Positions 11,136-28,793 of a DNA stretch of 32,000 nt are shown piece after piece. The DNA lies in NCBI GenBank assembly GCA_965219535.1, contig CBDCNV010000002.1, positions 90,001 through 122,000 on the forward strand. The letters run 5' to 3'. The position numbers and the translations under genes are program-made. How positions within the stretch are numbered: position 1 is the stretch's first letter; each line of letters opens with the position of its first letter. The stretch comes from Opitutales bacterium. GTDB lineage: Bacteria; Verrucomicrobiota; Verrucomicrobiia; Opitutales; PNEW01. Below the pieces are notes generated by a model. The model had not been told where the DNA came from. It did no database searches and saw only the letters and a program-made list of their open reading frames with translations.

Positions 11136-11374
11136 ATATTAACCGCTTCCACCTCCGGATTGGCTATCACCTCTTTCCAATCGGTCACCCAATTCTCAAA
11201 ACCTAAATATTCCTTCGCTTCTTTTGCCCGCGTTTCAATATTATCAGAGCAGACTATCAGGCGGGGGGTAATACCGCTTTCACGAAAACGATCGGGAACT
11301 TGCTTGTAACTCCGGCTATGCACCTGCCCCATCCAGCCCATACCAATAACACCAATACCAATAGTCTTTGCCAT
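11136..11374 (-). pseudogene. N-terminal fragment (approx. 80 aa) of a Gfo/Idh/MocA-family NAD(P)-dependent oxidoreductase, truncated by the IS3 end
   Basis: [26 protein letters not shown]...[11 protein letters not shown] is the Rossmann N-terminus of the family. The ORF-track tail GRDHENWST* is read-through into the IS3 inverted repeat. The remainder of the gene is not on the other side of the IS. Confidence 0.75.
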
Positions 11375-11454: not shown

Positions 11455-11732
11455 ATGAGCGGGGAAGTAAAACAAATTTCATACGACGATGTTCCATTTC
11501 TTATTAATTCATATCCGTTAACACATCCGAATAGACTGGCAGTGATTGGAATGTTGTTTGGGATGAGTACAACACAAGTTGATCGTTGTCGGGTGCTGGA
11601 ATTAGGCTGTGCTCAGGGAGGAAATCTGATCCCGATGGCTTTCAACTTTCCTCATAGTGAATTTGTCGGAATTGATTATTCTTCAAAGCAAATTGAATCA
11701 GGACAAAAAATTATTGATTCGGTAAAAATTAA
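11455..11732 (+). pseudogene. 5' part of a class I SAM-dependent methyltransferase (with C-terminal 'methyltransferase regulatory' region), interrupted by an IS1595-family element
   Basis: YDDVPFLINSYPLTHPNRLAVIGMLFG...VLELGCAQGGNLIPMA (SAM motif I)...VGIDYS. The reading frame rejoins 12476 exactly when the IS and one TSD copy are removed (..SVKIK|NITLKQGDVLEF..). Confidence 0.8.
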
Positions 11733-12467
11733 GGGTCATGCCTAGAACAGAGGGTATCTTAAGCACATATTAAGGATGTTACGATGGAGGTTTTGATGAC
11801 GATGGTTAAAGCGATATTCAGTTTCTTTGAGGTGCAGTTGGAAGGTCCTACGAGAAAGACCTTTGAACTTAGCCAATCGAAGTTTAGCAAAAGCCCAAAA
11901 AGATTCAATCCCGTTAATGTGGGAGTGTCCCTGGGCAAACTCGTTGTCGTTGTGATTGACACGGTAATGCTTCTTATAGCCCAGATCCACGAGGCCGTTG
12001 TAAGCACGCCACCCGTCAGAATAAAGCACACTGTCAAAAGTAACTCTCCCTTGGATCACCGCATGCAGAGCGGCTCTGGAGACGTTGCGTACAACCTGGG
12101 TATAGACTTTCCCATTACGCTTGAGCAACCCGAAGACGGGCACTTTCTTGAATGCACCCCGACCTCTTTGCCCTGGAATTCTTTTGCCTCCAAAGTAGGA
12201 CTCATCCATTTCCACCGACCCCCTAAAAGGCGAGGCCTGCGCACATTGCTGCAACAAACGCTCCCGCAACAAGCGCAAATAACGGTTGACCGTGTTACGA
12301 TTCAATCCTGTCAATTGGGCTATCTTCAACGCTTCCATATCCAAGCTAAAACACTTTACTAACTGCCGAAATTTGGCCTCAGAAATTTTTGAACGATGTA
12401 CATACTTATTTCTCATTTGTCTAGAATAGCTTACACATCTGATATGTGTCTATTCTAGGCATGACCC
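11733..12467 (-). mobile_element. IS1595-family insertion sequence, 735 bp, with perfect 8-bp target-site duplication
   Basis: The terminal inverted repeats are GGGTCATGCCTAGAA (11733-11747) and TTCTAGGCATGACCC (12453-12467). The direct repeat AAAATTAA flanks both ends (11725-11732 and 12468-12475). There is a single transposase ORF inside. Confidence 0.9.
11742..12416 (-). CDS. IS1595-family (ISXO2-like DDE) transposase, 224 aa
   Basis: ORF track: VEMDESYFGGKR..GQRGRGAFKKVPVFGLLKRNGKVYT...LYSDGWRAYNGL...HYRVNHNDNEF...HINGIESFWAFAKLRL...ETEYRFNHR. The stop lies inside the left IR. Confidence 0.9.
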   Translation of the reverse strand: MRNKYVHRSKISEAKFRQLVKCFSLDMEALKIAQLTGLNRNTVNRYLRLLRERLLQQCAQASPFRGSVEMDESYFGGKRIPGQRGRGAFKKVPVFGLLKRNGKVYTQVVRNVSRAALHAVIQGRVTFDSVLYSDGWRAYNGLVDLGYKKHYRVNHNDNEFAQGHSHINGIESFWAFAKLRLAKFKGLSRRTFQLHLKETEYRFNHRHQNLHRNILNMCLRYPLF

Positions 12468-12475
12468 AAAATTAA

Positions 12476-13781
12476 AAATATCACTTTGAAGCAAGGGGAC
12501 GTTCTTGAATTTGGTGAGAATGAAGAGAAGTTTGATTACATTATAGCTAAAGGAATATTTTCATGGGTATCTAGAGACGTCCAAGACAAGATTTTAAAAA
12601 TCTGTAGAGATCACCTGAATCCTCAAGGCATCGCTTATATTAATTATAATACCTATCCGGGGTGGAGGGTATTAGGTATGTTCAGGGACATGATGAAGTA
12701 TCACACCTCTAAAATGAGCGATCCGGAAACGATCGCTAATCAGTCCCGTGCGCTCATGGCCTTATTAAGTATGGGAGCTGAATCGGACAAAAGACCCTAT
12801 GGGGAGTTTTTAAAATCAGAATTCGAGAAAATAAAAAAATATCCTAATGATCATATTATTCGAATATACCATGAAGGCATTAATGAACCTTGTTATTTTC
12901 ATGAATTCTCAAGAAGAGCGGATGATTTCGGTTTACAGTATTTAGGTGAAGCAGAATTTCATGAAATGCTATCCAGTGATTTTACCCCGAAGGTTAGAGA
13001 GACGCTTAACAAATTAACTAATGATTTAACTGCCAGAGAACAGTATATGGATTTTTTGAGAAATTCGACACAACGCCAAACGCTGCTCTGTCATAAAAAT
13101 ATAAAATTAAACAGAGCTATCAACATTGATATAATTAATAGTTTTTATATAACGCGGTCGACAATTTTGAAACCTGAATCGGATAAGCTTAAATTAGAAG
13201 AGGAAAAAGATTATACATATACGGGAAGAAATAATATAAAAGTGACATGCAGGAGTCTATTGGAGAAAACTTATTTTAAGCGTTTAAATGATTTAGCGCC
13301 CCAGGCTATTATGCATAAAGATGCTTTTGAATATACTCAAAAGGATATTTATGAAAATACAGGGAAAAAAATATCGGATAATGAGAGAGTAAAATTAAGC
13401 AGGTTTCTATTAAACTGCTATGCGAATGGAATAATTAAATTAAATTCGAGCACAACTAAGGTGGTTAATAAAGTAAGTGAGTTTCCAATGACATCAGAGC
13501 TGGCGCGCTATCAAGCGCGAGCGAGCTTGAAGATTACAAATCAGAATCATACATCTTTGTCCATTGATTTACTCCTTCAACAGATGATTCAATTACTCGA
13601 TGGGGAAAATAATTTGAAGACAATAAAAGATAAGTTATTGATATTGGCTGATTCAGGTGAACTGATATTTAATAAGGATAATGAAATTGTCAGTGATAGG
13701 GTAATGATCGAAAAAATAATCGATGAAAAATTAGAGACGAATTTAAACCTACTATTAAAACTCTCGTATTTAATAGGGTGA
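12476..13781 (+). pseudogene. 3' part of the IS-interrupted SAM-dependent methyltransferase (methyltransferase regulatory-domain region)
   Basis: Continuation of 11455..11732: FDYIIAKGIFSWVSRDVQDKILKICRDHLNPQGIAYINYNTYPGWRV... The ORF track starts it at TTG 12486, which is in frame with the upstream half. Confidence 0.8.
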
Positions 13782-13887
13782 AATTTTCGATGCAGTAAAG
13801 TCAAAGTCGCGGGGGTAGCGACGCTATCTTAGTTAGCAAATATGTTAGGTTTTTGCGCAACCTGAAAGGATACCGGAGGGATTCACG

Positions 13888-14625
13888 CTAATCAAACACG
13901 GGTAATTGTGTCGATACGGTTGCGGTATAGCGTTTGAAAGCTTCAGTGTATTTTATGGGTTGTCCTTTCCACTGAGTCGCCTGAGCACCTCGGTACTCAG
14001 CCCACTGGGTGTACCAGGTGGGGAGTTTAGCTTGTGACCGCAACGCTTTTAAAGCAGTGATTTTCTTTTCAAACACGGCGCTTATATCGACGTAAGTATC
14101 GGGATTAAAACCGGTGATATCATTGCGCGTTATAGTGGGCTCATAAAAAAAAATATGAGGAAAAGGGAGCGGTTCACATGAATCGTGGTCGAACCCCGGA
14201 GTTGCGGCGATGGATGATGCGCGAATCACTGCCGACGTGGTAGCTTCGTGATCAACATTTAAAGGATCAGATTTCCAATGGGTTAGGATAATTGACGGAC
14301 GTTGTTTCCGAATAAGACGAGCCAGGGTATCCAGTTGTTCCCGATTGATGAATAACGGGTAATCCCCGTAATCCATAAACTCGATGCTTGCACCAATAAC
14401 AGCCGCCGCTTCTTCAGCTTCAACCCCCCGTATATTCTTTGCCTCCTCTATCGACTTGCTCCCCTGCTCTTTCCAGTAATCTTCGGATTCACCACGCTCG
14501 CCGAAAGTCAGGTCGACTATATGTACCTTATCCTGCTGGTCGGTACTAAGGGCAATTGTCCCTCCGCTGCGCGAACAAAAATCAGCGGCATGAGCGCTGA
14601 AGACAAGGATTTTGCGCTGAGCCAC
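13888..14625 (-). CDS. PIG-L/LmbE-family deacetylase/hydrolase
   Basis: ORF track: ILVFSAHAADFCSRSGGTIA...HIVDLTFGERGES...ILTHWKSDPLNVDHEAT, the LmbE-like fold pattern. It lies 6 nt downstream of the dehydrogenase gene. Confidence 0.75.
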   Translation of the reverse strand: MAQRKILVFSAHAADFCSRSGGTIALSTDQQDKVHIVDLTFGERGESEDYWKEQGSKSIEEAKNIRGVEAEEAAAVIGASIEFMDYGDYPLFINREQLDTLARLIRKQRPSIILTHWKSDPLNVDHEATTSAVIRASSIAATPGFDHDSCEPLPFPHIFFYEPTITRNDITGFNPDTYVDISAVFEKKITALKALRSQAKLPTWYTQWAEYRGAQATQWKGQPIKYTEAFKRYTATVSTQLPVFD

Positions 14626-14631
14626 AGTTAA

Positions 14632-15633
14632 TTAAGTCAGTTTCATACGGGGCTTTACGTCATGATTGACGTAGGAGCGCGGCCAGTGACCTTGTGAGAA
14701 AGCAATTGCTGCATCCAGACTGTAACGCCAGAAATTTTCATGGGACACACTGGAACCACCGGCATTATGCGGGGTCAGCACGACATTTTCCATTTTTAAT
14801 AAAGGATTATCCGGAGGGGGGGGTTCTTCATCCAGCACATCCAAACCGGCAGCATCAAACCAACCTTCTTCCAAGGCTTTAATAAGAGCGCCCTCATCAA
14901 TGATCTTCCCCCGTGCGGTGTTAATAAGAATCGCCGAGGGTTTCATCAAACGCAACTCGCGTTCGCCAATAAGGTGAAAAGTTTCTGGTGTCCAGGGACA
15001 GTGGATTGAGACGAAATCAGATTGTGCCATGACTTCATCCAGACTTTTCGCTTTTGCCACCACCGCTTCAATCACCTCAGAACTGACATATTTATCATAG
15101 ACGATAAAATTCATTTCAAACCCGCTAAGTTTTCGGATGACGTTACGCGCTATGTTTCCAAATCCGATTAGACCCAGGGTCTGTCCGCGCATCTGGCAGC
15201 GAGGCCTACCAGAATCGAGTTTCCAGACACCATTATGAATAGCGCGGTCTTGAAAGGAAATTTGACGTACCACATCGAGTAACAATCCGACCGTGTGATC
15301 AGAAACTTCCTCTCTTGTCGCTTCTGGAGTGTGAGCGACAACTATTCCCAATTTTGTCGCCTCTTCAACAGGTATATTATCTGTCCCGCTCCCCGCGCGT
15401 ACGATCGCCCCACAATGTTTCAGGTCTTTGATGCTGTCTTCGGTTACTACTTTGCTCCCACCGTGGACCCAGACTAAATCCGCGTCACTGGCAAAGCCCG
15501 ATAATTCATCTCTAGTCGTGCATTCCTGGTAAGCCCAATCGAGATTATTTTCATTTAGTCCCGCTTGTATCCACTCAGGTATTTCTCCTAAAGTTTCACT
15601 TACCGCAACAATAGCTACTTTGAATCGATCCAT
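14632..15633 (-). CDS. D-isomer-specific 2-hydroxyacid dehydrogenase family protein (NAD-binding)
   Basis: ORF track: GQTLGLIGFGNIARNVIRKL (GxGxxG), DFVSIHCPWTPETFHLIG, ILINTARGKIIDEGAL, LDVLDEEP, VVLTPHNAG. Confidence 0.85.
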   Translation of the reverse strand: MDRFKVAIVAVSETLGEIPEWIQAGLNENNLDWAYQECTTRDELSGFASDADLVWVHGGSKVVTEDSIKDLKHCGAIVRAGSGTDNIPVEEATKLGIVVAHTPEATREEVSDHTVGLLLDVVRQISFQDRAIHNGVWKLDSGRPRCQMRGQTLGLIGFGNIARNVIRKLSGFEMNFIVYDKYVSSEVIEAVVAKAKSLDEVMAQSDFVSIHCPWTPETFHLIGERELRLMKPSAILINTARGKIIDEGALIKALEEGWFDAAGLDVLDEEPPPPDNPLLKMENVVLTPHNAGGSSVSHENFWRYSLDAAIAFSQGHWPRSYVNHDVKPRMKLT

Positions 15634-15738
15634 CTAATTTTTGTAGGGGTTATGGTGAGGGATGTCTAGGTTTTAAAGGTTAAAAGGTATGCAAGATACA
15701 ACATATCTCATTTGTAAATATTTTGCATCGCGACAGCT

Positions 15739-17074: not shown

Positions 17075-18160
17075 TCACTTACTGCACAAGCTAATCAATT
17101 CCAAGCGATTACGCACGCGGGCTTTGCGTAGAATATGGCGAATATGAGTCTTTATCGTGGTCAGAGAAACCCCCAGGGTATCGGCGATACGGGAAGCTGA
17201 ATTACCATCCATAATTAAATCGCCTACTTCTCTTTCTCGTTTTGAAAGCTCTATTTTTTTTGCAAATTCGTTAAAGGATGCAGATTTTCTTATCAGTCGT
17301 TTTTGCAGGTTTGTCGTGAGCAGAAGATAGGGCCTGACACCGAGCGAGCTTTTGAAGGCCAGATAGCGTACCGCACCTTCTAAATATTCAGTACCCGTTA
17401 CCGGCATCTCCAACCGTACCAGTGGGCCCTGGGTAATGGCCATCCTTGAAGAGACCTGAGGTACCGTGCTTTTCTGGTATATTTTAATCGCTTCGTCGCA
17501 GGCTTCCTCCCAATCAGAAGGGAGGGCAACTTGACGTGGCAACGTATAATTTTTTACTGCTTCCCGTCCATGTTCCCAGATGTAGAGATGCTCTCTAAAT
17601 GGCGTATTATCGAAAGTAAGTCTTTTATTAGTATCGAGCAGGCATAAGCCTTCGGAGTAGATGTTACTGACAAGCCGAAAAAAACCGACAACAAACTCCT
17701 GTTCCTGTTCCTGGGAGAGAAGGACAAAACAACGGTCGAGATGTTTGCCGACATTATTCGCAAGTTGGATCTCCTCATCGCTGAAAGGATTTCCATCCCG
17801 AAAAAGGAAGAGAATGAATAATGCTTTGCCTTTACGGCGAAGGGGAATAATCTGAATATGCGCAGTCTTAGTGGGTGAGAGCTCACGCCCCAACGATTTT
17901 AATAGCGCTTCTGTCTCACGATTAATTCCATATTGGGTAAGTCGAAAAAGCGATTGTTGATTCGGGAACTTGCTATTTTCCCGAATGCCTTTGGCAATTA
18001 TCATATTGTTACCGCCAGCGTTGAAACTGGGTGGGAAGAGACAGGCCCAGGCATTTAATTCAAATATGCCCATGACGTCCTTTAACGCTTGTTCAAACCC
18101 GGTAAGGGTACGTTGATAAGAAAGATTGAGGAGACAATCTGTAAGTTTTGATGACTCCAT
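17075..18160 (-). CDS. LuxR/FixJ-type HTH transcriptional regulator with a large uncharacterised (GAF/PAS-like?) N-terminal sensor region
   Basis: ORF track. The C-terminal LSKREREVGDLIMDGNSASRIADTLGVSLTTIKTHIRHILRKARVRNRLELI is a canonical LuxR_C HTH. There is no receiver-domain Asp pocket or autoinducer-binding pattern that I can recognise. Confidence 0.8.
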   Translation of the reverse strand: MESSKLTDCLLNLSYQRTLTGFEQALKDVMGIFELNAWACLFPPSFNAGGNNMIIAKGIRENSKFPNQQSLFRLTQYGINRETEALLKSLGRELSPTKTAHIQIIPLRRKGKALFILFLFRDGNPFSDEEIQLANNVGKHLDRCFVLLSQEQEQEFVVGFFRLVSNIYSEGLCLLDTNKRLTFDNTPFREHLYIWEHGREAVKNYTLPRQVALPSDWEEACDEAIKIYQKSTVPQVSSRMAITQGPLVRLEMPVTGTEYLEGAVRYLAFKSSLGVRPYLLLTTNLQKRLIRKSASFNEFAKKIELSKREREVGDLIMDGNSASRIADTLGVSLTTIKTHIRHILRKARVRNRLELISLCSK

Positions 18161-18184
18161 TCCGGATAAAGGAGTTATCCTGTT

Positions 18185-20443
18185 CTAGCGAAGGGAACGC
18201 ATGTTATTGTCCCAAAATGAAACGACACCGCGCCAGATTTTTTTACCCAAGGTGGTTTTTTTCCCGAGGATAGTAGCCTGTACGCGCATGCCTTCAAAAA
18301 CCTGATAATCTTTTACATGATTGACGAGTGGAGCTTCGGCAAGAAAAAGGGCAAATTGTGGATCGTTGGTACCTAAACCATTCTGTCGGTCTTGTGCATT
18401 ACCCTGTTCTCGTGGAGCGGGGCCACCAAAAGCGGTATACATCGCTAACATGTAATTTTCAAAAGATGCTCGTTGACGCGGAAAGACATCAATTGCCGTC
18501 TCAAATTTTACCGCGTCGGCTTTCCATCGACCACGAACTTCACTGCCGAGTTCGATAAGTTGTATTTCACTTTCTGATAGAGGCAGAATAAGGCGTAAAT
18601 TTTCGCGTGAACCTATGCGCATTAAATCCTGTTTAGGGTTGATGTACTTTCCCGCCAGTCGGTGGATATCAGAGGAGAGCACGAAACCGGAGATCGTAGC
18701 TTTTAGCTCAAGGGTGTCAGCTTCTTCACGGATTCTCCGATAATGAGTTTCAGCCACTTCTAAAGCTGCCGCTGCTTCTGCCATATACCTGGCAGTGTTC
18801 CAGGAGCCATCATTATGTAATACCCCATACTGTAATTTCGCTTTTTCAAAATCGGCGTGTGCAATCTCGAGTTCAGCTTTGAGAGAGGGATTCTTCAGCC
18901 TGGCGACAATCTCTCCAGCTTCGACCCAATCACCTGTTTTGACGAATACATCCTCGACCAGTCCCCCCATTCGAGAGGCAATGATTTCGCTTTCACTATA
19001 GCGAACGATTCCCTGGCGATTGACATTATAACGACTGGGTAGAATAGCGATGATCAGAATGATTGCGAGCAAGGCAATACCCATGAAAATGTTTCGTCTT
19101 TTCGTCGACTCGACTTTGATTATATGAGGGGCCGCTTCGGGGTTAAAAACATCGGACAAAATTTTTGCGATAGGAAATCCGATAAATGAAATCTGGGCAA
19201 ATACTCCCAATCCTAAACCAAATTCACCAAGACCATAAGGAGCGAGAACACGCGCAAATATTTGGCTGAGGGAATAGATGATGAAGGCCATATACAAAAA
19301 GGCGCTGATCGCGTAAATTACAAAAAACTTACCGTCTGTATGGATGTCGAATGATCGTTCCTGAAAAGTGTTGCGGATCCCAAAAAGAAATTGCTGGACG
19401 CGGTAGGAACAGTAGGTGATGGATTTTGTTCGTAAATTAGGAATTTCCATCCAGTCACTGATAACATAATAACCATCAAACCGCATCAACGGATTCAAAT
19501 TAAAAAATATGGTATTAATGCTCGCGACGAACATAATATTAAACGCAATGTTCTTGAGCAGACCGGGTGAGAGGTAAAGCCAAGCATATACGCAAATGGA
19601 AGCGATGACAAATTCTGTGAAAACACCGGCTAAGGTAGTATAAATTTTATGCCGTTTGTGTTTCATCATATAGGCGTCTGACGCGTCAACGTAACCACAG
19701 GGGGTCAAACAGATCAGACAGACACCCATCTCATGCACTTCTCCGCCAAAATAACGACAAGTCGTAGCATGTCCTAACTCATGGCAGGTTTTTACGAAAA
19801 TAATTGATAGCCATAGGAGAATAAGATTAGCGGGAGATAAAAAATTTATATCGTTGTGTGAAAAGGCTTCGCGGTTGACGAAGAGCCAGAATATTGTAAA
19901 CGCGAAAAAGCCGAGGCAGCCCCAGACAAACCAGCGTGACCAAAGAAACGTAATCTTTGAAGTTAAAGTGCTTAACCAGGGACTGGGGTCAATAAGCGGG
20001 AGCTTTAGAAAGATAAGCTTCTGCATACTCGTCATCCATAGACGAATGATGCTGTTTGCCTGATGAGGTTTTTGACGGGCAAAATCGACAAAACGGCGAG
20101 CACTGATGTTGAGAAGCCCCCCCATCCCCAACTGTTGAATAAAGGTGGCCAGGTCCTCCAATTTAATCGTGCTATTAGGATATTGCTGCGAGAATTCATT
20201 TAAAACCGCCTTTAAATTTTTCTTCCCATCAAGTAAATTTATAATAAATGCCTCTTCGGGGCGCAGGCGAAAATAAGTTAAAGCGAGGGGATCCTTGATG
20301 ACAAAATACTCTTCTTTTTTAAAGAATTGTTTCTGAATAACGAGGTCCGCTCTCAGCCGCGAAGGGACCATATTCTCCAAATCTGTATTTTCTTGAGTCG
20401 GAGCTGAGGGATCCGTTTCCACAGGCAGTGAAACCGTATTCAT
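18185..20443 (-). CDS. fusion protein: PqqD-like N-terminal domain + polytopic M50 (site-2) zinc metalloprotease + HlyD-type periplasmic adaptor (752 aa)
   Basis: ORF track. HELGH (HExxH) sits in a TM helix and the second S2P motif is FFNLNPLMRFDG (NxxPxxxxDG). After a further TM segment (IFMGIALLAIILIIAILP) comes a lipoyl-like hairpin GGLVEDVFVKTGDWVEAGEIVARLKNP...LKATISGFVL with a coiled coil. The N-terminal EEAFIINLLDGKKNLKAVLNEFSQQYPNSTIKLEDLATFIQQLGMGGLL resembles PqqD/RRE domains. Confidence 0.8.
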   Translation of the reverse strand: MNTVSLPVETDPSAPTQENTDLENMVPSRLRADLVIQKQFFKKEEYFVIKDPLALTYFRLRPEEAFIINLLDGKKNLKAVLNEFSQQYPNSTIKLEDLATFIQQLGMGGLLNISARRFVDFARQKPHQANSIIRLWMTSMQKLIFLKLPLIDPSPWLSTLTSKITFLWSRWFVWGCLGFFAFTIFWLFVNREAFSHNDINFLSPANLILLWLSIIFVKTCHELGHATTCRYFGGEVHEMGVCLICLTPCGYVDASDAYMMKHKRHKIYTTLAGVFTEFVIASICVYAWLYLSPGLLKNIAFNIMFVASINTIFFNLNPLMRFDGYYVISDWMEIPNLRTKSITYCSYRVQQFLFGIRNTFQERSFDIHTDGKFFVIYAISAFLYMAFIIYSLSQIFARVLAPYGLGEFGLGLGVFAQISFIGFPIAKILSDVFNPEAAPHIIKVESTKRRNIFMGIALLAIILIIAILPSRYNVNRQGIVRYSESEIIASRMGGLVEDVFVKTGDWVEAGEIVARLKNPSLKAELEIAHADFEKAKLQYGVLHNDGSWNTARYMAEAAAALEVAETHYRRIREEADTLELKATISGFVLSSDIHRLAGKYINPKQDLMRIGSRENLRLILPLSESEIQLIELGSEVRGRWKADAVKFETAIDVFPRQRASFENYMLAMYTAFGGPAPREQGNAQDRQNGLGTNDPQFALFLAEAPLVNHVKDYQVFEGMRVQATILGKKTTLGKKIWRGVVSFWDNNMRSLR

Positions 20444-20446
20444 GGC

Positions 20447-21844
20447 TTATTCGTCTCCATTTCCATCGACCGGCGAAGCAATAGCATACTCGACTTGAGC
20501 GATAGCGGAATTGTAATTATAAAGGGAGCGAGATAAATTAATCTGGGAACGGCGCAAAATAATTTGTGCATCGAGAACTTCTTCCAAGCCGACTTGCCCG
20601 ACTTCATAGAGTCGTTCAGCCTGATGTAGATTTTCATTACCTAAAGCCACGGATGTCCGATGGAAGTTTATGACTGAACGGGATTGTGCAATTTGCGCAT
20701 AAAATTCCTGAATTTGCGAGGTTATTCTATATTCTAACTCCTGGTAGCGAATCTGCGCATCTCTCGCCTCTGCCTTCTGCGATGTGATGACACCTGATCG
20801 CTGGAATCCATCAAAAATATTCCATTGTCCGACAGCTCCAATCGTCCATCCATCCAAATCTTTGTTTGAATCATAATAAGAGGATCTAATCGAGTAATTT
20901 GCATAGACCTCGAGCATGGGAAGCCACTCTCCATGAGCGGCATTTACGCCTTTTTTTGCCGCTTCCCACCGATAGCGGGCTGCTTGAAGGTCACCCCGTT
21001 TTTTTAAAGCCAGCCCCAGGGCTTTTCCAAAGGAAATATCAAATGGTTGTTCTTCCAATTTACCGGCCAGTGTTACTCGGTCACTTAGTGGATCTACAGA
21101 TTGGGGCAATACCAGCAAACGTCGAAAAATCTGTTCGGCTTGAATCAAATTGGATTCTGATTCGGCCAGCTCAGCAATGGCATTTTGTAGTTCTGTCCGT
21201 ACTCTGAGGATTTCGTAATCGGTGACCTCACCTGCAGCTTTCTTTTTCCCTGCAATATTCAGGACTGTTTCAAAAGTTTTAACGGTCTCTTTCCGAATAT
21301 CGACGACTGAAATTGAATAGAGCAGTTGATCGAATGCCTGTTTAACAAAAGAGACAACTTTCCGATTTGTATCTTCTGATGTAGCTTCTGCCCCTTTGTA
21401 AATCAGAGATTCCTGTTGATACCGATTCCATCGCTTTAACCCATCAAATACAACTTGCCGAAACTCTACAGAGCCTGAATAGGCATCTTGCGTGATTGCG
21501 GTTTGCTCGGAAGGTACTTGATCGAGCTCATTGGGATTGCGGTCGATAAGCTCTTCATCGCGTCCATTCGCAGAGCCAATGAGCCTCATCGTAGGGAGCA
21601 AATCCGATCTGACCTGGACCCTTAACCCTCGTTGCCGGGCCATTAATGCATCGGCCCTTTGGATGTCGGGATTGACCGACAATGCCCGCTCAATAGCATT
21701 CGCGATCGTCCAAGGCGCATTGAGTTCGCTCTTGGTAACAGCCGATTTCTCATTTTCCTTTTCTGCTGCGAGATCCACTCCAACAAGAAGAAGACACAGG
21801 GATAAAAGGCAGAAAATAAATAAAGATCTACTCAATCGATTCAA
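20447..21844 (-). CDS. TolC-family outer-membrane efflux/secretion channel (OEP repeats), signal peptide
   Basis: ORF track. The N-terminal signal is MNRLSRSLFIFCLLSLCLLLVG. There are two OEP-type repeats (WTIANAIERALSVNPDIQRA...LLPTM; ...ALKKRGDLQAARYRWEAAKKGVNAAHGEWLPML). Apparent TTG start. The stop is 3 nt from the M50-HlyD ATG. Confidence 0.85.
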   Translation of the reverse strand: MNRLSRSLFIFCLLSLCLLLVGVDLAAEKENEKSAVTKSELNAPWTIANAIERALSVNPDIQRADALMARQRGLRVQVRSDLLPTMRLIGSANGRDEELIDRNPNELDQVPSEQTAITQDAYSGSVEFRQVVFDGLKRWNRYQQESLIYKGAEATSEDTNRKVVSFVKQAFDQLLYSISVVDIRKETVKTFETVLNIAGKKKAAGEVTDYEILRVRTELQNAIAELAESESNLIQAEQIFRRLLVLPQSVDPLSDRVTLAGKLEEQPFDISFGKALGLALKKRGDLQAARYRWEAAKKGVNAAHGEWLPMLEVYANYSIRSSYYDSNKDLDGWTIGAVGQWNIFDGFQRSGVITSQKAEARDAQIRYQELEYRITSQIQEFYAQIAQSRSVINFHRTSVALGNENLHQAERLYEVGQVGLEEVLDAQIILRRSQINLSRSLYNYNSAIAQVEYAIASPVDGNGDE

Positions 21845-21932
21845 TTCTTAAAATGGGTTTAAATAGTCCAAGAGCCGTTAGGTTCTCCCGGAGAGATTCT
21901 ACTTCAAACTTTAAAAAGCACTTAAGTGGTAC

Positions 21933-23312
21933 TCACCTCGACACTTTTAATAAATAGAGGCCAGTTTGTTTCTCTTTCATGAGCACAGGTTGAGTGGTCG
22001 ATTCATGGCTGAGTTCTTGATAGATAGAGCTTAAAGAGTATTGAATAAGTTTAAGGGAGAACTCGGGGCCACGTGCGTCTTCTAAATGATAAATACTTCC
22101 GCGTGTCACCCGTAACAGATCTTTTACCACAACCCTGGCCAAGGGGGCATGTATTTTTGAAAAGTAACCCAGGGAAATTGTAATATCGAATGTCTGGTCT
22201 TCGAAAGGGAGTGGCTCCTCAGGATTAAAAAACTGGATTTTCGGATTTTCATCACCGGTTAAGTTCTTTGCGGCCTCTACTTTATAGTGCGCGTCCTCGA
22301 TTCCTGTGATCTCCCAATCAGGTTTGGTTTTTTTAAAGAGAATCAAGTCTTTTCCCCAGCTGGCACCCAATATCAAAACCTTTTTAATCTTACTATGATC
22401 GTCAATTTGCTGGAGAAGAAAATCACCCAAGGGGTTCAGCTTATCATCAGGACGGTTATTCCATTTCTCGACCTCAATTTTCGTAGAAAAAGCTTCGTCA
22501 TTTACGATCGCTGTTTCAGGATAGGGGTCGAGCAGAGCTTGAAAAAGGGGGGGTGAATAAGACGTGCCGGAAAACTGTGGTGTGCCGATACCATTTTCAC
22601 TCTTTTTATCGATATGAAATTTAAGTCCGAGAAATGAAGCACCCCACAAATAAGCATCGGCGAATGTTTGCACTTTTAATTGGAGCCCATTCATATCCCA
22701 GTTCAAGGGATTCTCCTCCGAGGGCAGCTTCTTTTCCTGGCATATATCAAACGCATCCTTATCGAGAAGGCCCCAAACAGCATCTATCAGAGCATTTATT
22801 GTTACCAGGTACGAACTCCAGGAAGCGTAATCAGTCATTGAAGCTGTGCGGATGGGATGCATCAATCGTGAATAGGAGGCAATTTTAGGAGGTAGAAAGT
22901 GCTCAAGGGCCTTGCGGGATAGACCATTAAGAAAAGTGATCCAACCGTGTCCGCCCTCATTAAGCATACTTAATATGCTTTGGAGAGAGGATAAATTCCC
23001 CTTCCAATAATTGTGAATCTGGTAAAAAATGAGACTATCAAAGGGGCCATTAGCTTTCACTCTTTTCTCATACCAACTGAGGTCCCAGGGGTCGCTTCCC
23101 AGGTTTTTAAAGTCGTCGAGATAGGTGTGAAGTTTTGCTTGTGGTTCAACGAGACTTAATTTAACTTTTTTCCCATACTTGTCCTGTAAGCTCCTTGCCA
23201 ATCTGCCGTCCCCTGCGCCGACAATAGCCACATGCTTGACATCATCATTTACAAGTTCGATAATTTTCTCTTCCAGGGCATTAAGAATAGGGGGGGAGTT
23301 CTTACAGCGCAT
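21933..23312 (-). CDS. hypothetical protein with two Rossmann/class I methyltransferase-like halves
   Basis: ORF track. There are two motif-I-like segments: HVAIVGAGDGRLARSL (N-terminal half) and KKVLILGASWGKDLILF...ITGIEDAHYKVEAAKN...FDITISLGYF (C-terminal half). It is the first gene of the minus-strand operon containing the TolC-family gene. Confidence 0.45.
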   Translation of the reverse strand: MRCKNSPPILNALEEKIIELVNDDVKHVAIVGAGDGRLARSLQDKYGKKVKLSLVEPQAKLHTYLDDFKNLGSDPWDLSWYEKRVKANGPFDSLIFYQIHNYWKGNLSSLQSILSMLNEGGHGWITFLNGLSRKALEHFLPPKIASYSRLMHPIRTASMTDYASWSSYLVTINALIDAVWGLLDKDAFDICQEKKLPSEENPLNWDMNGLQLKVQTFADAYLWGASFLGLKFHIDKKSENGIGTPQFSGTSYSPPLFQALLDPYPETAIVNDEAFSTKIEVEKWNNRPDDKLNPLGDFLLQQIDDHSKIKKVLILGASWGKDLILFKKTKPDWEITGIEDAHYKVEAAKNLTGDENPKIQFFNPEEPLPFEDQTFDITISLGYFSKIHAPLARVVVKDLLRVTRGSIYHLEDARGPEFSLKLIQYSLSSIYQELSHESTTQPVLMKEKQTGLYLLKVSR

Positions 23313-23429
23313 CCCTTACAAGAAATAAATCTCCCATTATAATGCAATATAAATTTTTATCCTTGTTTACTGTGCATTTAGGCTTCGCATTCACCTGATT
23401 TTTATGTATATTTCACTTGATAATTATCC

Positions 23430-25631
23430 ATGGAGACCCACCCCAACACAGCGAGTTCACAAGTCCAACAAGTTGTAGCAGGCATATCCGCACAACTGGC
23501 GCAACTGGCAAAAGATCCCCCAGATTTGACCGCCTATCTTCGCGCGCACGCTAATCTGTTGAACCAAGCACTCCGGCCCCAAGGATTAACGTATGAAATT
23601 CTAAGCGGGTCGACGTTCAAGCGGCTCTTTTCGGTTAATCTGAAACAGTTAAAGCTGGAAGAAAACCCGGCTCAAGATGAGTCCTTTCGCAAAGCTGTCA
23701 ATGAAGTGGCGTTGGGGAAGAAACCCATGGTCTTTCAACCAAATTCCCGCTCGCGTGACGGGGGTGACAATCTGGCCATAGATACCGCGGTTACGAGCGA
23801 GCACCTCAAATTATTTAACGATACCCCATTTGAACAATTTTTTATTCCCATACCCATGGAGTCCAAGGTTGCCGGCGTATTGCATGCCTGGTTTAAACCC
23901 GTAAATAGTGAAACCACGAATACCCGCTTGCTTTTACTTAAGCATTTTTGTGAGGAAGTCGTTCTCTATCTGCGCAGTCGACGAGCTACCGATCTTACCC
24001 AGGAGTTAACACGAACAAATACTTATTCACATCTATTAGAAGACTTGGCCGGTGATATAGATTTAGATTCTGTTGCTTGGAATATTGTAAATTTTGCTCG
24101 TGAAACGGTAGATTGTGAGCGCGTATCCATTTTTCACGTAAAGAACTTTCCGCATCAAAATGGGCATGGGTTGGATTTTGAGATTTTAGCCTGTAGTGGA
24201 TTAAAGCGTCCGCATGCCCGTAGTGAACAAGCAGAAATTCTTAAGGACCTGGTAAAAGAATTGGCAAAATTTACACTGAGTGACACGGTGGCAATTCAAT
24301 CGCAAAAGTCATCGGAGTCACATACCGCCGTGACGCCACAGATCGTGGATCAAACAGCTGAAACAAGTGAAAAAGGAGAAGCACTCTTGCGTTCACCCGG
24401 ATCGAAAGATCAATCAAATGAGAAGGTCAAAGTTCCTGAGAAGCCATCCCATACGCTGCCTTCCGGGGACCGCCCACGATTTCACCTCACCTTTACCTAT
24501 CGCGATCCGGAGAAAACAGCATCGCGTCCTGATTCCATCAATCAGTACTTTGATTTAATTCCCATGAATTGGGCTACTTCCCTTCCCCTTTTTGATCGCG
24601 AGGGACTGATTTGCGGAATTTTGCTCTTTGAAGGGCGAAATAATGCGGAGAAGGCCAAGAGCACCTTTTTGCACATGCGGGATCTGGCTTATTCTGGCGG
24701 ACGTTCTCTGGGAACTTCGCTATATTGGAATAAACGACGGTCTTTCCGAGTTATTAAAGAAGTTGCGCGTTTAAAAACGCGTTATGTCAATTCGGATAAG
24801 CGTACGCTGATGCTTAAGGTGGGGCTACCCATTGCGCTCGTCTTACTCGTCTTGTGTCTGCCTTTTAAATTCAAGATTAGAGGGGATGCGTATCTGAGGC
24901 CCACTAATTTTCAGTCTTTGCCCGCAATGGTTTCAGCCCGCCTGGACAAAGTATTAATTAGAGAAGGACAAGCGGTAAATGAAGGGGAACTCCTGGCGGT
25001 TCTCGAAACACGTGACCTTGATTTGCAGTTACACCAGGCACAGCAGGAGTATCAACGCCACATGGCGGAATCAGATATGGCGCGCAACATGGGCGAAGAA
25101 ACTCAGATGCAAGTCTCTCAGCTCAATGCCCGTAAATCAGCGGCAACGATAGATAAACTCCGCTATGAATTATCCCATGCAGAAGTACGTGCGCCTTTCG
25201 CCGGAGTTGTTATTGGCCCATTGAACCTCCAAATGCGAGTGGGGAATGTCTTTAAGATAGGAGAACCCGTGGTAGAAATGGCCAAACCTGGCAGCTGGGA
25301 AGTAAAAATTGATGTTAAAGAAAAGGATTTAGTTTTTCTCGAGCGGTACATGCGTAAGCATGATACGATTACTTCTGATGTTAAATTTAATGCTGATCTG
25401 ACCGAGACGTACAGTTTAGAGCTCAATCATCCTGACCAATTAGCATATGGGTTGGAAACGGGCAGTGACAATTACTCTTTTGCCGTAGTTTTACCCATGG
25501 GAGAATCAATCGACACTGAGAATTTAAAAATGGGTTATACCGGCAATGCCGCATTTGTAATTGGTAGACGCCCCCTGGCATACATTATGTTCCGTGATGT
25601 CGTACACTTTATGAGAGTCAGGTGGTTCTGA
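23430..25631 (+). CDS. HlyD-type membrane-fusion/adaptor protein with a long cytoplasmic N-terminal region containing GAF-like domain(s), single TM (733 aa)
   Basis: ORF track. GAF-like stretches: DLDSVAWNIVNFARETVDCERVSIFHV...WATSLPLFDREGLICGILLFEG. TM: LMLKVGLPIALVLLVLCLPF. HlyD lipoyl hairpin: VSARLDKVLIREGQAVNEGELLAVLETRDL, then a coiled coil, then EVRAPFAGVVIG. Confidence 0.7.
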   Translation: METHPNTASSQVQQVVAGISAQLAQLAKDPPDLTAYLRAHANLLNQALRPQGLTYEILSGSTFKRLFSVNLKQLKLEENPAQDESFRKAVNEVALGKKPMVFQPNSRSRDGGDNLAIDTAVTSEHLKLFNDTPFEQFFIPIPMESKVAGVLHAWFKPVNSETTNTRLLLLKHFCEEVVLYLRSRRATDLTQELTRTNTYSHLLEDLAGDIDLDSVAWNIVNFARETVDCERVSIFHVKNFPHQNGHGLDFEILACSGLKRPHARSEQAEILKDLVKELAKFTLSDTVAIQSQKSSESHTAVTPQIVDQTAETSEKGEALLRSPGSKDQSNEKVKVPEKPSHTLPSGDRPRFHLTFTYRDPEKTASRPDSINQYFDLIPMNWATSLPLFDREGLICGILLFEGRNNAEKAKSTFLHMRDLAYSGGRSLGTSLYWNKRRSFRVIKEVARLKTRYVNSDKRTLMLKVGLPIALVLLVLCLPFKFKIRGDAYLRPTNFQSLPAMVSARLDKVLIREGQAVNEGELLAVLETRDLDLQLHQAQQEYQRHMAESDMARNMGEETQMQVSQLNARKSAATIDKLRYELSHAEVRAPFAGVVIGPLNLQMRVGNVFKIGEPVVEMAKPGSWEVKIDVKEKDLVFLERYMRKHDTITSDVKFNADLTETYSLELNHPDQLAYGLETGSDNYSFAVVLPMGESIDTENLKMGYTGNAAFVIGRRPLAYIMFRDVVHFMRVRWF

Positions 25632-26476
25632 TGGGTGTTCATGTCCCTCTCATTAAAAGCGCTTTAGCACTTATTACCCTACTTTTCCTCCAATCGCTTT
25701 TAGCGATTGGCCAGTCTCCCTCTTTATCAACCTACCCTCTCGACCCGGGATCTTATCGAGGATCACTGCGTTCAGTCTTGCTGCCCCGAGAAGATATTAA
25801 ACTTAGTGCGGCCTCTGCGGGGATCATTAAGATATATCACGTAAAAGAAGGGCAGCGGGTAGTAGCCGGGGACGTCATCCTGGAACTCGATTCAAGGGAA
25901 GAAGAAGCCGCGGTTAATCAGGCGGAGGCAGTTTTGGATGGTGCCGCGGCAGAGTTGGAAAAAGCGCGCAAAGACATGAAGCGGGTGGAAAAGCTCTACA
26001 AGGATAACATTCAGAGTGAGAAACAATATGAAGAAACGGTCTATATTTTGGCAAAAGCGGAAAGCCAATACCAACATACCCAAGCTTCAAAAAAAGCCGC
26101 TGAGATCCGTCTCGATAAAAAGAAGATAAAATCCCCTATCGATGGTATTTTTCTGAAAAAATATAAGTCTGTGGGCGAATCTGTTGAGCGCCTGGAAACG
26201 GTGGCGCGTGTCCTCGATGATACACGTTTAGAGCTTGTTGTTTATTGCGGATCACAACTCTTTGGCACTTTACATTCTGACACGACCCTGAACATAGAAA
26301 TTCTCGATGGGCCCGCGCGCGGAGAACAAGCAACGGCCGAGGTTGTCTATGTTGATCCTCTCATTGATCCCTCGAGTGGTACTTTTCGCGTCAAACTGGA
26401 GATCAGTCCCTCTGAAAATATATCCGCAGGATTTGCAGCGCGCCTGATAATTTCCGACAGTATGACTTCTAAATAG
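25631..26476 (+). CDS. short HlyD/RND-type periplasmic adaptor subunit with signal/anchor sequence
   Basis: The ORF track starts at GTG 25622. ATG 25631 overlaps the upstream stop as TGATG. N-terminal hydrophobic segment: LIKSALALITLLFLQSLLAIG. SAGIIKIYHVKEGQRVVAGDVILELDSREEEAAV, then a coiled coil, then IKSPIDGIFLKKYKSVGESV. Confidence 0.8.
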   Translation: MGVHVPLIKSALALITLLFLQSLLAIGQSPSLSTYPLDPGSYRGSLRSVLLPREDIKLSAASAGIIKIYHVKEGQRVVAGDVILELDSREEEAAVNQAEAVLDGAAAELEKARKDMKRVEKLYKDNIQSEKQYEETVYILAKAESQYQHTQASKKAAEIRLDKKKIKSPIDGIFLKKYKSVGESVERLETVARVLDDTRLELVVYCGSQLFGTLHSDTTLNIEILDGPARGEQATAEVVYVDPLIDPSSGTFRVKLEISPSENISAGFAARLIISDSMTSK

Positions 26477-26553
26477 GTATATTTACGAAAATAAGTTGAT
26501 TTATTGCTTAACAACAACTATGATAAGGGCTTAATTTTGAAAAAGGGTAACCC

Positions 26554-27831
26554 GTGGCATTAAGACCCTCCATAATAATGGGTCTTCAGCTTGAATTGCT
26601 TGAAGACCGGACTTTGTTGGCATCAGACTTCCCCTGGCTGGATGCAGCCGTGGAGGCTGATTCCCATTATCAGTTTGAATATGTGTGGTTCCCGAGTGAC
26701 TCGCAAATCACTTTAAAGGGTGATAATACCGGAAATTTAGTTATCAATGTGGATTTTTTGCCCAATAATGTTAAAAATATTTCAGCGTCTTCATTTGCCG
26801 ATGTATCCCTTGTGGGGACGCGTGGCGTTGACCGGCTTTTTGCGGCCGATCTGGGAAATCTGAACGTAGAGATTCCTGTCCATAAGTCACTTATAACAGA
26901 TGATGTCGACATGCTCGGTCTTTTTGAGCCGGCGCCCTTCACCCTTCTCGAGGGGAGCGATATCTTTATTGAAGCGGGGGATTTTACGGAGACATTTCTT
27001 TACAGTGATCTTGAGACTCTGGAATTGAAAATAAATGACCCTGAAAGTACTCTCTGGTTATTAAGTTTGAATCCCGACCAGACAGTGCGCGCCAATTTTG
27101 TCCCTGATGATTTCACATTAATTGGGCTGGAGAATTCGCAACTTGGGATCCTGGGCGAGGAAACTGAAATTCAGATTGATGTGGACTCCCTCCTTGCTGA
27201 TCTCCGTGCAAATGAAACGCAAAATCTTGCGTTGATTTCGTCTGATTTGGGTTTCAATGAGTCGGTTTTATCTCAATCAGGATCAGCGATTGAGAATACG
27301 ATTATTCCTGCGAGTGAATCTTTTTCGCTGGCTCAACCTTTAAGTGTAGCGGTATCAACCAATACCGACGCCATAGCACCTGAAAGAAGCGAGAATCTGG
27401 ATGTGGCGAATGAGCGTCTGAGCGAAGAATCACTCTATGCTTATTATTTAGAAAACTTCTACAATTCCGGAGCGTGGTTGCCAGATCAATTTGTAGCGGA
27501 TGATAGGGCGCCCTATGATGAAATAGATTTTAATTCAATAAGCAGCGATCTTTTTACTTCATTAGATATGGACGCAGGTATTATAATTGAAGCTCCTCTC
27601 TCTGAGGGCAGTGGAGAACAAGGGGTAGCAACCGTTGAACCCACTTGGCTGGAAAAAGTGGAACTACGTATGAATGAACTGCTTGCGCGATCAAATAACA
27701 CGCGGCTCTCCATGGGTGAACATCTACTCATGCGCGCCGCCAACGAATTCACTCCCGGAGAACGCCCCGGTTTGATCGTCGATACTAAAGCCCCGTCGAA
27801 GAACAGTTTTAGCGCGGCCGTAACGTCATGA
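26554..27831 (+). CDS. highly acidic, cysteine-free hypothetical protein with N-terminal LELLEDRTLLA motif (candidate exported cargo)
   Basis: ORF track (GTG 26554; alternative ATG 26578 gives MGLQLELLEDRTLLA). It has no cysteine, a strong D/E excess and no classical signal peptide h-region. I recognise no domain. Confidence 0.6.
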   Translation: MALRPSIIMGLQLELLEDRTLLASDFPWLDAAVEADSHYQFEYVWFPSDSQITLKGDNTGNLVINVDFLPNNVKNISASSFADVSLVGTRGVDRLFAADLGNLNVEIPVHKSLITDDVDMLGLFEPAPFTLLEGSDIFIEAGDFTETFLYSDLETLELKINDPESTLWLLSLNPDQTVRANFVPDDFTLIGLENSQLGILGEETEIQIDVDSLLADLRANETQNLALISSDLGFNESVLSQSGSAIENTIIPASESFSLAQPLSVAVSTNTDAIAPERSENLDVANERLSEESLYAYYLENFYNSGAWLPDQFVADDRAPYDEIDFNSISSDLFTSLDMDAGIIIEAPLSEGSGEQGVATVEPTWLEKVELRMNELLARSNNTRLSMGEHLLMRAANEFTPGERPGLIVDTKAPSKNSFSAAVTS

Positions 27832-27843
27832 CGCAATAAATTA

Positions 27844-28119
27844 ATGGCACATAAAAAGAACAATAAAAGGATTATCAGAAACCGGTCATCCATGATATGG
27901 ATGGAAACCCTGGAGCAAAGACAGCTTTTAGCCCCTATTTTTGGTTCCGCTGAGGCTGCCGGGCTCAACTATAACAATACGCCACCAATAACGCGAGACC
28001 CTTCACTGAGTGCCCCTCCAGTTGGCTTGAATGTTCTGAATGCAACCCCTACGAGTGAGGATAAAACCCCGCTCGAAACCGATTTCCCTTCCAACCGCCT
28101 TATCGTCAAGATTGTTTAG
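27844..28119 (+). CDS. small ORF with basic N-terminus followed by METLEQRQLLA motif; possibly the 5' stub of a larger secreted-protein gene
   Basis: ORF track: MAHKKNNKRIIRNRSSMIWMETLEQRQLLAPIF... It ends at the TAG immediately before the repeat array at 28120. Confidence 0.4.
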   Translation: MAHKKNNKRIIRNRSSMIWMETLEQRQLLAPIFGSAEAAGLNYNNTPPITRDPSLSAPPVGLNVLNATPTSEDKTPLETDFPSNRLIVKIV

Positions 28120-28442: not shown

Positions 28443-28793
28443 ATGACACAATTAATTCACAAGGAGTTGAGTGGAAAGATAATAGGTGCAGCATTGACTA
28501 TTTTGAATGAATTAAAACCTGGTTTAGATGAAAAGCTTTATGAAAGAGCATTGTGCATTGAATTACAGGAAGCTGGGCATTCAGTCGAAGAACAAAAGCG
28601 TTTTCGCGTTGATTATAAAGGGCAGTTTATTGAATCGCCAATTTCCGATTTAAATGTGGATGATTTTGTAATTGTTGATACTAAGGTAGTTTCAGATTTT
28701 AATGACTCCCATATGGCCCAAATGTTGGGATATTTGGCCATCATTACAGATTTGGAATTGGCCCTGTTATTAAGTTTCAAAAACGCAAGGTAA
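28443..28793 (+). CDS. GxxExxY-family protein (PD-(D/E)XK nuclease-like fold), C-terminally shortened
   Basis: ORF track: SGKIIGAALTILNELKPGLDEKLYERALCIELQEAGHSVEEQKRFRVDYKG...VIVDTKVVSDFNDSHMAQMLGYLAIT. It ends LLLSFKNAR*, where family members normally continue for about 10 more residues (..FKN.K.E.KR..). Confidence 0.75.
   Translation: MTQLIHKELSGKIIGAALTILNELKPGLDEKLYERALCIELQEAGHSVEEQKRFRVDYKGQFIESPISDLNVDDFVIVDTKVVSDFNDSHMAQMLGYLAIITDLELALLLSFKNAR

Follow-up and report, generated by a model that had tools for sequence, protein, structure and literature searches.

The 32-kb stretch analysed here (contig CBDCNV010000002.1 of an Opitutales bacterium; hereafter the window, on whose positions all feature coordinates are given) contains a cluster of eight open reading frames (ORFs) built around an M50-type membrane protease that is fused to a periplasmic adaptor and accompanied by two further adaptors and a TolC-family outer-membrane factor. 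The cluster is a SecA-less, TolC/LuxR-linked Opitutae variant of a module that has been known bioinformatically since 2015, and we are confident that it belongs to that published Kamneva-Ward module, minus the SecA_DEAD protein. What appears to be new is the presence in the fusion protein of an RRE domain (RiPP recognition element; RiPP, ribosomally synthesized and post-translationally modified peptide) together with homology to RiPP leader peptidases, a syntenic family of proteins with a leader-like N-terminus that could be substrates, and the TolC/LuxR-bearing Opitutae variant itself. We propose that the locus carries out leader-guided, protease-coupled, TolC-dependent protein export, a mechanism that, taken as a whole, we give an even chance of being correct.

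A neighbourhood of genes for a GAF-HlyD protein, a Peptidase_M50 protein and a HlyD/biotin-lipoyl protein, with or without an outer-membrane efflux protein (OEP), was described by Kamneva, Poudel and Ward (2015, PLoS One, PMC4452313) in a comparative genomic study that took secondary SecA_DEAD proteins as its starting point. Because that study reported the module, the system is not undescribed, as a preliminary description of this DNA had supposed. The module was recorded in Planctomycetes, Verrucomicrobia (including Coraliomargarita akajimensis of the class Opitutae), Proteobacteria, Nitrospirae and Chlorobi, with RB142/144/146 of R. baltica, Caka_2047-2049 and META1p2399-2402 of M. extorquens among the published examples. 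Its authors already noted the absence of an ABC (ATP-binding cassette) transporter, proposed SecA_DEAD as the ATPase and the membrane domain of the M50 protein as the pore, pointed out that components of the module can be encoded elsewhere in a genome, and called its biological role completely unknown (PMC4452313). Our literature searches found no later paper on this module and nothing relevant on combinations of M50 protease, HlyD and TolC or on the daptide protease. A preprint on giant genes with SecA_DEAD domains (10.1101/2023.11.21.568195) was set aside, since it concerns another matter than this module.

The fusion protein (752 aa; 18185–20443, minus strand) combines a cytoplasmic, putatively peptide-binding RRE/PqqD-like domain with an intramembrane zinc protease and, in the periplasm, an AcrA/MexA-like adaptor. 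It scored 37.8 bits against Peptidase_M50 (cut-off 27.2) and 47.6 bits against HlyD_D23 in Pfam searches, and its hydropathy profile contains seven transmembrane (TM) segments between residues 171 and 470. An AlphaFold2 (AF2) model computed with 56 homologues (mean pLDDT 78.9) is made up of an N-terminal unit, a helical membrane core and a C-terminal adaptor. The N-terminal winged-helix domain, delimited from the AF2 model and a domain profile (residues 26–125; 20069–20368, minus strand), has a beta3-alpha3 arrangement with strands at residues 35–41, 44–51 and 56–60 and helices at 62–69, 77–87 and 95–107. With the window protein alone, the PqqD model PF05402 gave 17.2–21.5 bits, below its cut-off of 23.4; across 29 diverse N-domains of the fusion family it matched 17, with a best E-value of 4.2e-9. 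The Foldseek PDB lists of both AF2 models that we computed (this one and that of the long adaptor, below) consisted of adaptor matches, and the RRE-like unit was examined via a domain profile instead. Built from the same 29 domains, this profile had as its top solved structures PqqD (3g2b, E-value 0.0078), 5sxy and the lasso RREs TfuB1 and TbiB1. The AF2 fold, the family profile and the PF05402 matches thus uphold the earlier PqqD-like call: the unit is a PqqD/RRE-type domain, and from its sequence and modelled fold it is predicted to bind peptides. We also observed that PF21782, the C-terminal winged helix of PKMT proteins, matches 8 of the 29 N-domains and that a protein lysine methyltransferase (8hkr) is among the weak PDB matches of the profile; methyltransferases found alongside the module may have a leader-binding domain of a related type.

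The polytopic M50 core (residues about 165–470; 19034–19951, minus strand) carries HELGH at residues 221–225 and NLNPLMRFDG at 315–324. All 40 diverse homologues, down to 22% identity, and all 56 closer ones share residues H221, E222, H225, N315, P318, D323 and G324. The zinc site (HExxH plus NxxPxxxxDG) is intact, as had been claimed for the window protein, and catalysis is predicted from these residues. Residues 44–405, which span part of the RRE-like domain and most of the protease core, matched the NCBIfam model daptide_HExxH (NF041824) with 159.7 bits (E-value 1.1e-46, cut-off 300), and the YydH/LiaK epipeptide protease model (NF058609) gave 44.6 bits (E-value 1.4e-11, cut-off 225). Given significant E-values and scores below the cut-offs, the protease half is homologous to RiPP leader peptidases yet lies outside those families. 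Together, the RRE domain and this homology imply that the protease would recognise a peptide leader on the cytoplasmic side. The remainder of the protein (residues 471–752; 18188–19033, minus strand) is a periplasmic adaptor of the membrane fusion protein (MFP) type with a lipoyl domain, an alpha-hairpin (519–576) and a beta-barrel, and its best Foldseek matches are AcrA, MexA and MacA from complete TolC/OprM assemblies.

Homologues of the fusion protein are numerous: 4,380 matches were obtained among 8,000 candidates scored, and the representatives of 50%-identity clusters number 12,916 at an E-value of at most 1e-3 and 3,753 at an E-value of at most 1e-30. Most of the 150 representatives listed are full-length, at about 700–760 aa, and genomes of GTDB species contain at least 572 fusion loci. 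The best 80 loci come overwhelmingly from Planctomycetota and Verrucomicrobiota, with single loci from Saprospiraceae, Bacteroidales, Ca. Venteria and Burkholderiales. For the neighbourhoods, 84 non-redundant loci (given L numbers below, with positions on the locus concerned) were translated in six frames and searched with the window proteins. A three-gene core recurs among them, in the order long adaptor, short adaptor, fusion. Among the 66 loci with at least 3.5 kb visible upstream, 48 have a long adaptor, 49 have either a short adaptor or, in its place, an adaptor-WD40 protein, and 14 have an OEP; these are probably underestimates because the searches used single sequences. A TolC-family gene adjoins the module in 14 of the 84 loci, from three phyla: six are Opitutae loci with a short OEP, and eight have an OEP of 625–800 aa. 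Of the latter, four are from other Verrucomicrobia (Spartobacteria twice, Chthoniobacterales and Puniceicoccaceae once each), three from Planctomycetes and one from Saprospiraceae. Few of the 84 loci have an ABC-type ATPase within 10 kb, and the polytopic ORFs other than the fusion form no recurrent family.

These neighbourhoods bear on several expectations of the preliminary description. None of the three findings that had been named as overturning the proposal was seen: the three adaptor genes do stay together across phyla, the catalytic residues of the M50 core have not decayed, and in place of a regular pump, ABC-, RND- or MFS-like genes (resistance-nodulation-division; major facilitator superfamily) are sporadic among the 84 loci. 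Two further observations concern the composition of the module. In about nine loci (L023, L024, L037, L039, L042, L048, L053, L061 and L087), the gene immediately before the fusion gene encodes a WD40 beta-propeller protein of about 590–820 aa where the short adaptor would otherwise be; the proteins of L039 and L061 also give a weak adaptor match. Directly 3' of the fusion gene, Pirellulaceae loci encode a small DUF3467 protein (L056 12443–12886, L059 3369–3803, L067 12233–12766 and L086 6764–7132) that could be one more part of the module.

Pfam searches found HlyD_3, HlyD_D23 and Biotin_lipoyl_2 on both adaptors that are not fused to the protease. The long adaptor (733 aa; 23430–25631, plus strand) ends in a TGA stop that overlaps the ATG of the short-adaptor gene (GGTTCTGATGGG, TGATG). 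Its AF2 model (pLDDT 78.6) has two cytoplasmic GAF-like alpha/beta domains (about 10–185 and 189–435), one TM helix (457–476) and a periplasmic MFP portion with a hairpin at 528–582, for which the top Foldseek matches are MexA, AcrA, MacA and EmrA. The label GAF-HlyD given to it earlier is borne out in some of its homologues, 7 of 49 matching GAF_3 and 4 of 49 matching GAF_2; on the 733-aa window protein itself no GAF domain was detected. We equate this adaptor with the "GAF domain protein" of Kamneva et al. (PMC4452313). The short adaptor (25622–26476, plus strand) has 284 aa if it starts at a GTG, but a start at the ATG of 25631 is likelier and yields 281 aa, the length given in public gene calls. 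It has a signal or anchor and no lipobox Cys, and it exceeds the cut-off of the RND_mfp model TIGR01730 (140.6 versus 94.9 bits) with a match to profile positions 21–244 of 322. Because the match is confined to those positions, the short adaptor seems to be without the membrane-proximal domain used for docking on RND or MacB pumps.

Between the fusion gene and the divergent intergenic region lie two more genes of the minus strand. The TolC-family protein (465 aa; 20447–21844), separated from the fusion gene by 3 nt, matches the OEP family PF02321 with 159.1 bits in two stretches and has a hydrophobic N-terminus (residues 8–26) that is a signal or an anchor. It stays below the cut-offs of the subfamily models TIGR01844 (114.7 bits, cut-off 225) and TIGR01845. 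An OEP gene precedes the fusion gene in all six Opitutae-clade loci. Next to it, after a gap of 88 nt, is a gene for an S-adenosylmethionine (SAM)-methyltransferase-like protein (459 aa; 21933–23312) with 39.3 bits to Methyltransf_25, a clear methyltransferase fold at residues 296–414 and weak second methyltransferase-like matches in the N-terminal half; since orthologues were found only in L007 and L009, we regard it as accessory and outside the core. At the other end, 24 nt from the fusion gene, is the gene for a LuxR/GerE-type regulator (361 aa; 17075–18160, minus strand), in which PF00196 (GerE, 51.3 bits) matches a C-terminal helix-turn-helix at residues 305–357 and the N-terminal 295 aa give only a weak hint of GAF_2 (E-value 0.23). 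Its orthologues in L004, L007 and L009 likewise come after the fusion gene, and among the loci compared the gene is restricted to the Opitutae clade. The two operons diverge from a presumed promoter region of 117 bp with 29% GC (23313–23429), in which promoter-like hexamers (23315–23343 and 23384–23412) are no more frequent than in shuffled sequences; a scan for terminators likewise did no better than shuffles. A check of ORFs and motifs showed that the order, gaps and motifs of the eight-ORF cluster agree throughout with those first reported, and the acidic Cys-free protein listed with them is present as well.

That acidic protein and the small ORF after it are the candidate clients. The former (425 aa, or 417 aa from the ATG at 26578; 26554–27831, plus strand) contains 72 D+E against 21 K+R and no Cys, and carries the N-terminal tag LQLELLEDRTLLA; in the latter (91 aa, or 75 aa from M17; 27844–28119, plus strand) the tag is METLEQRQLLA. 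By hydropathy neither has a signal peptide or a TM segment, and the 425-aa protein has no relatives in Pfam, NCBIfam or the PDB and no HemolysinCabind match. A member of its family follows the short adaptor in the Opitutae-type loci L004, L007, L009 and L010, so that the LExLExRxLLA neighbour pointed out earlier is strictly syntenic in this clade. The family evolves fast, and in the alignment invariance is limited to the N-terminal LExLExRTLLA and the C-terminal EFTPGERPGLIVD. A counterpart of the 91-aa ORF with 99 aa (WLEPLEKRELLA) is encoded 3.6 kb from the module in L007 and L008, and none was found in L004, L009 or L010. On these features of sequence and synteny, we consider the 425-aa protein a candidate cognate substrate and the 91-aa ORF a second candidate.

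Tagged neighbours of the module in Planctomycetes are larger (700–2,100 aa) and include proteins with 17 RTX repeats, cadherin/Big_9, dockerin, GEVED, subtilase, matrixin and CotH/CBM60 domains, again with no hydrophobic signal peptide. Counted as regular-expression matches, from which three spurious ones were removed by hand, tagged ORFs number 10 at distances of up to 2.5 kb from the module (329 kb of flank) and 4 farther out (611 kb; binomial p 0.006); when the related Opitutae loci are left out, the counts for Planctomycetes are 6 versus 3 (p 0.054). The LEPR-XLL model (NF012209) matches the tagged neighbour in L032 with 18.5 bits (cut-off 17) and that in L071 with 15.1 bits.

Profile annotation found no ABC, RND or MFS gene across the whole 32-kb window, and the Walker A pattern [AG]xxxxGK[ST] is absent from all eight cluster proteins, as the preliminary description had maintained for the cluster. 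Its wider suggestion that the system has no energising partner at all is not supported, because secondary SecA_DEAD proteins have been linked to the module (PMC4452313) and we found a SecA paralogue inside or beside it in 7 of the 84 loci (L049, L055, L056, L058, L067, L071 and L088). These paralogues (614–827 aa) have SecA_DEAD, SecA_PP_bind and P-loop_SecA and no wing/scaffold domain; in L055 the gene immediately precedes that of the fusion, and in L088, from a Burkholderiales metagenome-assembled genome, it separates the fusion gene from that of the short adaptor. In this genome a SecA_DEAD ATPase could be encoded elsewhere. In two close relatives, L007 and L008, genes for an O-antigen-type ABC transporter, Wzm (ABC2_membrane) and Wzt (ABC_tran plus Wzt_C), directly follow the LuxR gene (13390–15670), so that the module may have a link to glycan export. 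Near the LuxR gene of L004, just a Wzt gene was recorded (13979–15328), and in these relatives methyltransferases and glycosyltransferases come next. Two other kinds of gene were considered as motors or partners and rejected. The ABC ATPase of the Spartobacteria loci L016 (5460–6575) and L020 (6940–8043), a protein of 367–371 aa with a 140-aa N-terminal extension encoded divergently from the long adaptor gene, occurs in these two related loci only and next to genes without a recognisable permease domain. RND-sized ORFs near L015, L041 and L077 are too rare (3 of 84 loci).

In the mechanism that we propose, the RRE domain would dock the N-terminal LExLExRxLLA tag of clients that have no signal peptide, namely the 425-aa protein and the 91-aa ORF here and, in Planctomycetes, the large RTX, cadherin, dockerin and protease proteins. 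The M50 site, which is placed near the cytoplasmic face after the second TM segment, would then remove the tag, much as the closest characterised relatives do for RiPP leaders. The three adaptors may build a periplasmic duct onto TolC, through which the client would leave the cell. Energy could come from the published candidate, a secondary SecA_DEAD ATPase that is not encoded in the window, or from something else, and the GAF domains and the LuxR protein would provide regulation. The narrower claim that the M50-adaptor module is devoted to recognising, processing and secreting proteins with the LExRxLL (LEPR-XLL-type) tag is put forward tentatively, as a possibility that we ourselves doubt.

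Several observations weigh against this interpretation. To our knowledge, protein translocation by M50 enzymes has no precedent, and no inner-membrane channel or motor gene was identified in the window. SecA_DEAD is absent from the window and, within 10 kb, from the related loci L004, L005, L007, L009 and L010, and the Wzm and Wzt genes of L007 and L008 place an ABC transporter directly beside the LuxR gene. The enrichment of tagged ORFs is modest, comes partly from one clade and rests on hand-curated regular-expression matches. Verrucomicrobial loci outside Opitutae have no tagged neighbour, nor do the four loci from outside the PVC group (Planctomycetes, Verrucomicrobia and Chlamydiae), and the LEPR-XLL model does not match the 425-aa and 91-aa proteins even at an E-value of up to 10. 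Finally, the module is known from comparative genomics, that is, from genes alone, and in M. extorquens only the GAF gene was reported as expressed (PMC4452313).

Of the other explanations, a RiPP-like pathway draws on the same domain evidence. Here the small ORF or a fragment of the 425-aa protein would be the precursor, the RRE-M50 unit its leader peptidase and one or more methyltransferases the tailoring enzymes, with the adaptors and TolC exporting the peptide. The confirmed RRE fold, RiPP maturation proteases as the best named relatives of residues 44–405 (159.7 and 44.6 bits), a methyltransferase within the operon and the RRE-resembling winged helix of nearby PKMT-type methyltransferases all speak for it. 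We nevertheless find it rather unlikely, as both NCBIfam scores fall short of their cut-offs (300 and 225), the window encodes no radical-SAM, YcaO, lanthionine or other core-modifying enzyme, the methyltransferase is missing from most loci, no counterpart of the small ORF was found in L004, L009 or L010, and the tagged neighbours are multidomain proteins of 400–2,100 aa. The locus might instead be part of conventional tripartite efflux or type I secretion, with a pump that is encoded at a distance or was lost through insertion sequence (IS) activity and with the protease as an add-on, for example for quality control or signal processing. All three adaptors resemble AcrA, MexA and MacA, the short one scores above the RND_mfp cut-off (140.6 > 94.9), and IS elements abound in the window flank; moreover, Wzm and Wzt follow the LuxR gene in L007 and L008, Wzt is nearby in L004, and an ABC ATPase gene diverges from the module in L016 and L020. 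Yet over the 84 loci polytopic or ABC-like ORFs turn up only here and there within 10 kb and form no recurrent family, the M50 fusion is full-length in most of the 150 representatives listed (from a family of 3,753 clusters at an E-value of at most 1e-30), and the adaptors have TM anchors of their own, with the short one covering only RND_mfp positions 21–244 of 322. Kamneva et al. did not find an ABC partner either (PMC4452313), and we judge a displaced or lost pump to be an unlikely explanation.

In an envelope signalling role, the site-2-type protease would perform regulated intramembrane proteolysis on a regulator or anchor that bears the tag; cues from the periplasm or sensed by GAF domains would trigger it, and its output would feed into the LuxR regulator. 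M50 proteases such as RseP and SpoIVFB are classically signalling proteases, and both GAF domains and a LuxR gene are present. The expression of the GAF gene alone in M. extorquens (PMC4452313) would also fit. Signalling by itself, however, hardly explains three co-conserved adaptors with TolC-type hairpins and a recurrent TolC; the LuxR gene is confined to the Opitutae clade, the window encodes neither an anti-sigma factor nor a site-1 protease, and the tagged proteins lack a TM segment that could be cleaved, which makes this role quite improbable. We consider it least probable that the locus serves a glycan pathway (O-antigen, capsule or glycoprotein) as an accessory conduit in the outer envelope, in cooperation with Wzm/Wzt. 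This idea takes its support from the Wzm/Wzt, PKMT-type methyltransferase and glycosyltransferase genes that flank the module in L004, L007 and L008 and from the GT41, GT2, PIG-L and split PKMT-type methyltransferase genes of the window. This association is limited to some Verrucomicrobia and absent from roughly 70 other loci, Wzm and Wzt are absent from the window, and the RRE-protease would be left unexplained.

If leader-guided export through the protease-adaptor module and TolC is the correct reading, the locus would represent a distinct secretion pathway in which an RRE domain reads a leader, a site-2-type protease removes it, and a three-adaptor duct with TolC exports the protein, driven by a SecA_DEAD paralogue or another energy source instead of an ABC transporter. 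Many large surface or secreted proteins of the PVC group (adhesins, RTX proteins and proteases) start with LExRxLL instead of a signal peptide, and the literature searched describes no export route for them and no secretion route for the LEPR-XLL domain, a term that turned up there in two papers, by title a Vibrio genome report and a viral metatranscriptome study of Lake Baikal. A protease-adaptor fusion encoded beside tagged proteins and TolC is a concrete and testable candidate for such a route. With it, RRE-guided leader recognition would reach beyond small RiPPs to whole proteins, and a module that has stood uncharacterised since 2015 could be explained. Should the SecA-less form of Opitutae prove functional, it would raise the question of a TolC-linked conduit that has no ABC, RND or MFS motor.

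According to profile searches, genes elsewhere in the window include those for an SNF2/PLD helicase, GmrSD and sugar metabolism, two IS elements and the glycan-type genes named above. One of the last is a PKMT-type methyltransferase gene (11455–13781, plus strand), possibly an accessory gene, which is split here, and thereby inactivated, by an IS1595 element. The N-terminal fragment (11455–11745) has the SAM motif VLELGCAQGGN and the C-terminal part (12486–13781) consists of MethyTransf_Reg and PKMT_2nd; between them lies the IS1595-type transposase gene (11742–12416, minus strand) with 25-nt inverted repeats at 11727–11751 and 12449–12473. Intact orthologues of this methyltransferase adjoin the module in L004, L007 and L038. 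Upstream of it, in the region 9865–11374, is an IS3-family element with orfA at 10802–11068, orfB at 9858–10781 and 28-nt inverted repeats at 9865–9892 and 11092–11119. The 89-aa N-terminal fragment encoded beside it (11105–11374, minus strand) starts, as judged by eye only, like a Gfo/Idh/MocA-type oxidoreductase, and the IS3 element probably truncated its gene. On the other side of the cluster, the module is separated from a TPR/GT41 glycosyltransferase gene by a PDDEXK_3 gene (PD-(D/E)XK nuclease superfamily; 28443–28793). The first 4 kb of the window have a GC content of about 59–61%, against about 45% in the rest, and encode a 1,123-aa PLD-nuclease/SNF2-helicase protein (882–4253, minus strand), which is followed by a GmrSD-type restriction enzyme (5450–7393, plus strand); the region 1–7393 looks like a horizontally acquired defence island.

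Among known systems, the Kamneva-Ward module shares with the locus the same three protein families, an OEP that is sometimes adjacent, the lack of an ABC transporter and the same phyla (PMC4452313). The window differs in having no SecA_DEAD gene nearby, a TolC and a LuxR gene in the operon, and a syntenic family of tagged clients; the RRE/PqqD domain, the homology to RiPP proteases and the N-terminal tag are not mentioned in the sections and the supplementary table consulted (PMC4452313). LEPR-XLL proteins (NF012209, "LEPR-8K") likewise have a short N-terminal LE-x-R-x-LL after a basic stretch and are large, extracellular-type PVC proteins without a signal peptide, whereas the window carries a LE[DQ]R-x-LLA variant that goes undetected by the model. 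With classical type I secretion and tripartite efflux (HlyBD-TolC, MacAB-TolC, AcrAB-TolC and EmrAB-TolC) the locus has in common MFP adaptors with lipoyl, hairpin and barrel elements and a TolC-family outer-membrane factor. In contrast to these systems, however, it has no ABC, RND or MFS protein and three different adaptors instead of one, of which one is fused to a protease and another to GAF domains; its candidate signal is N-terminal rather than C-terminal and RTX-type, and the 425-aa protein has no RTX match. The M50/HExxH leader peptidases of RiPP systems resemble the fusion in pairing an RRE-like domain with a polytopic HExxH protease over residues 44–405, but the fusion scores below equivalog level, is joined to an MFP adaptor, has a TolC partner and lacks core-modifying enzymes beside it, and its putative clients are proteins rather than short peptides. 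As a functional analogy for the locus, peptidase-containing ABC exporters (PCATs) couple the removal of a leader to export.

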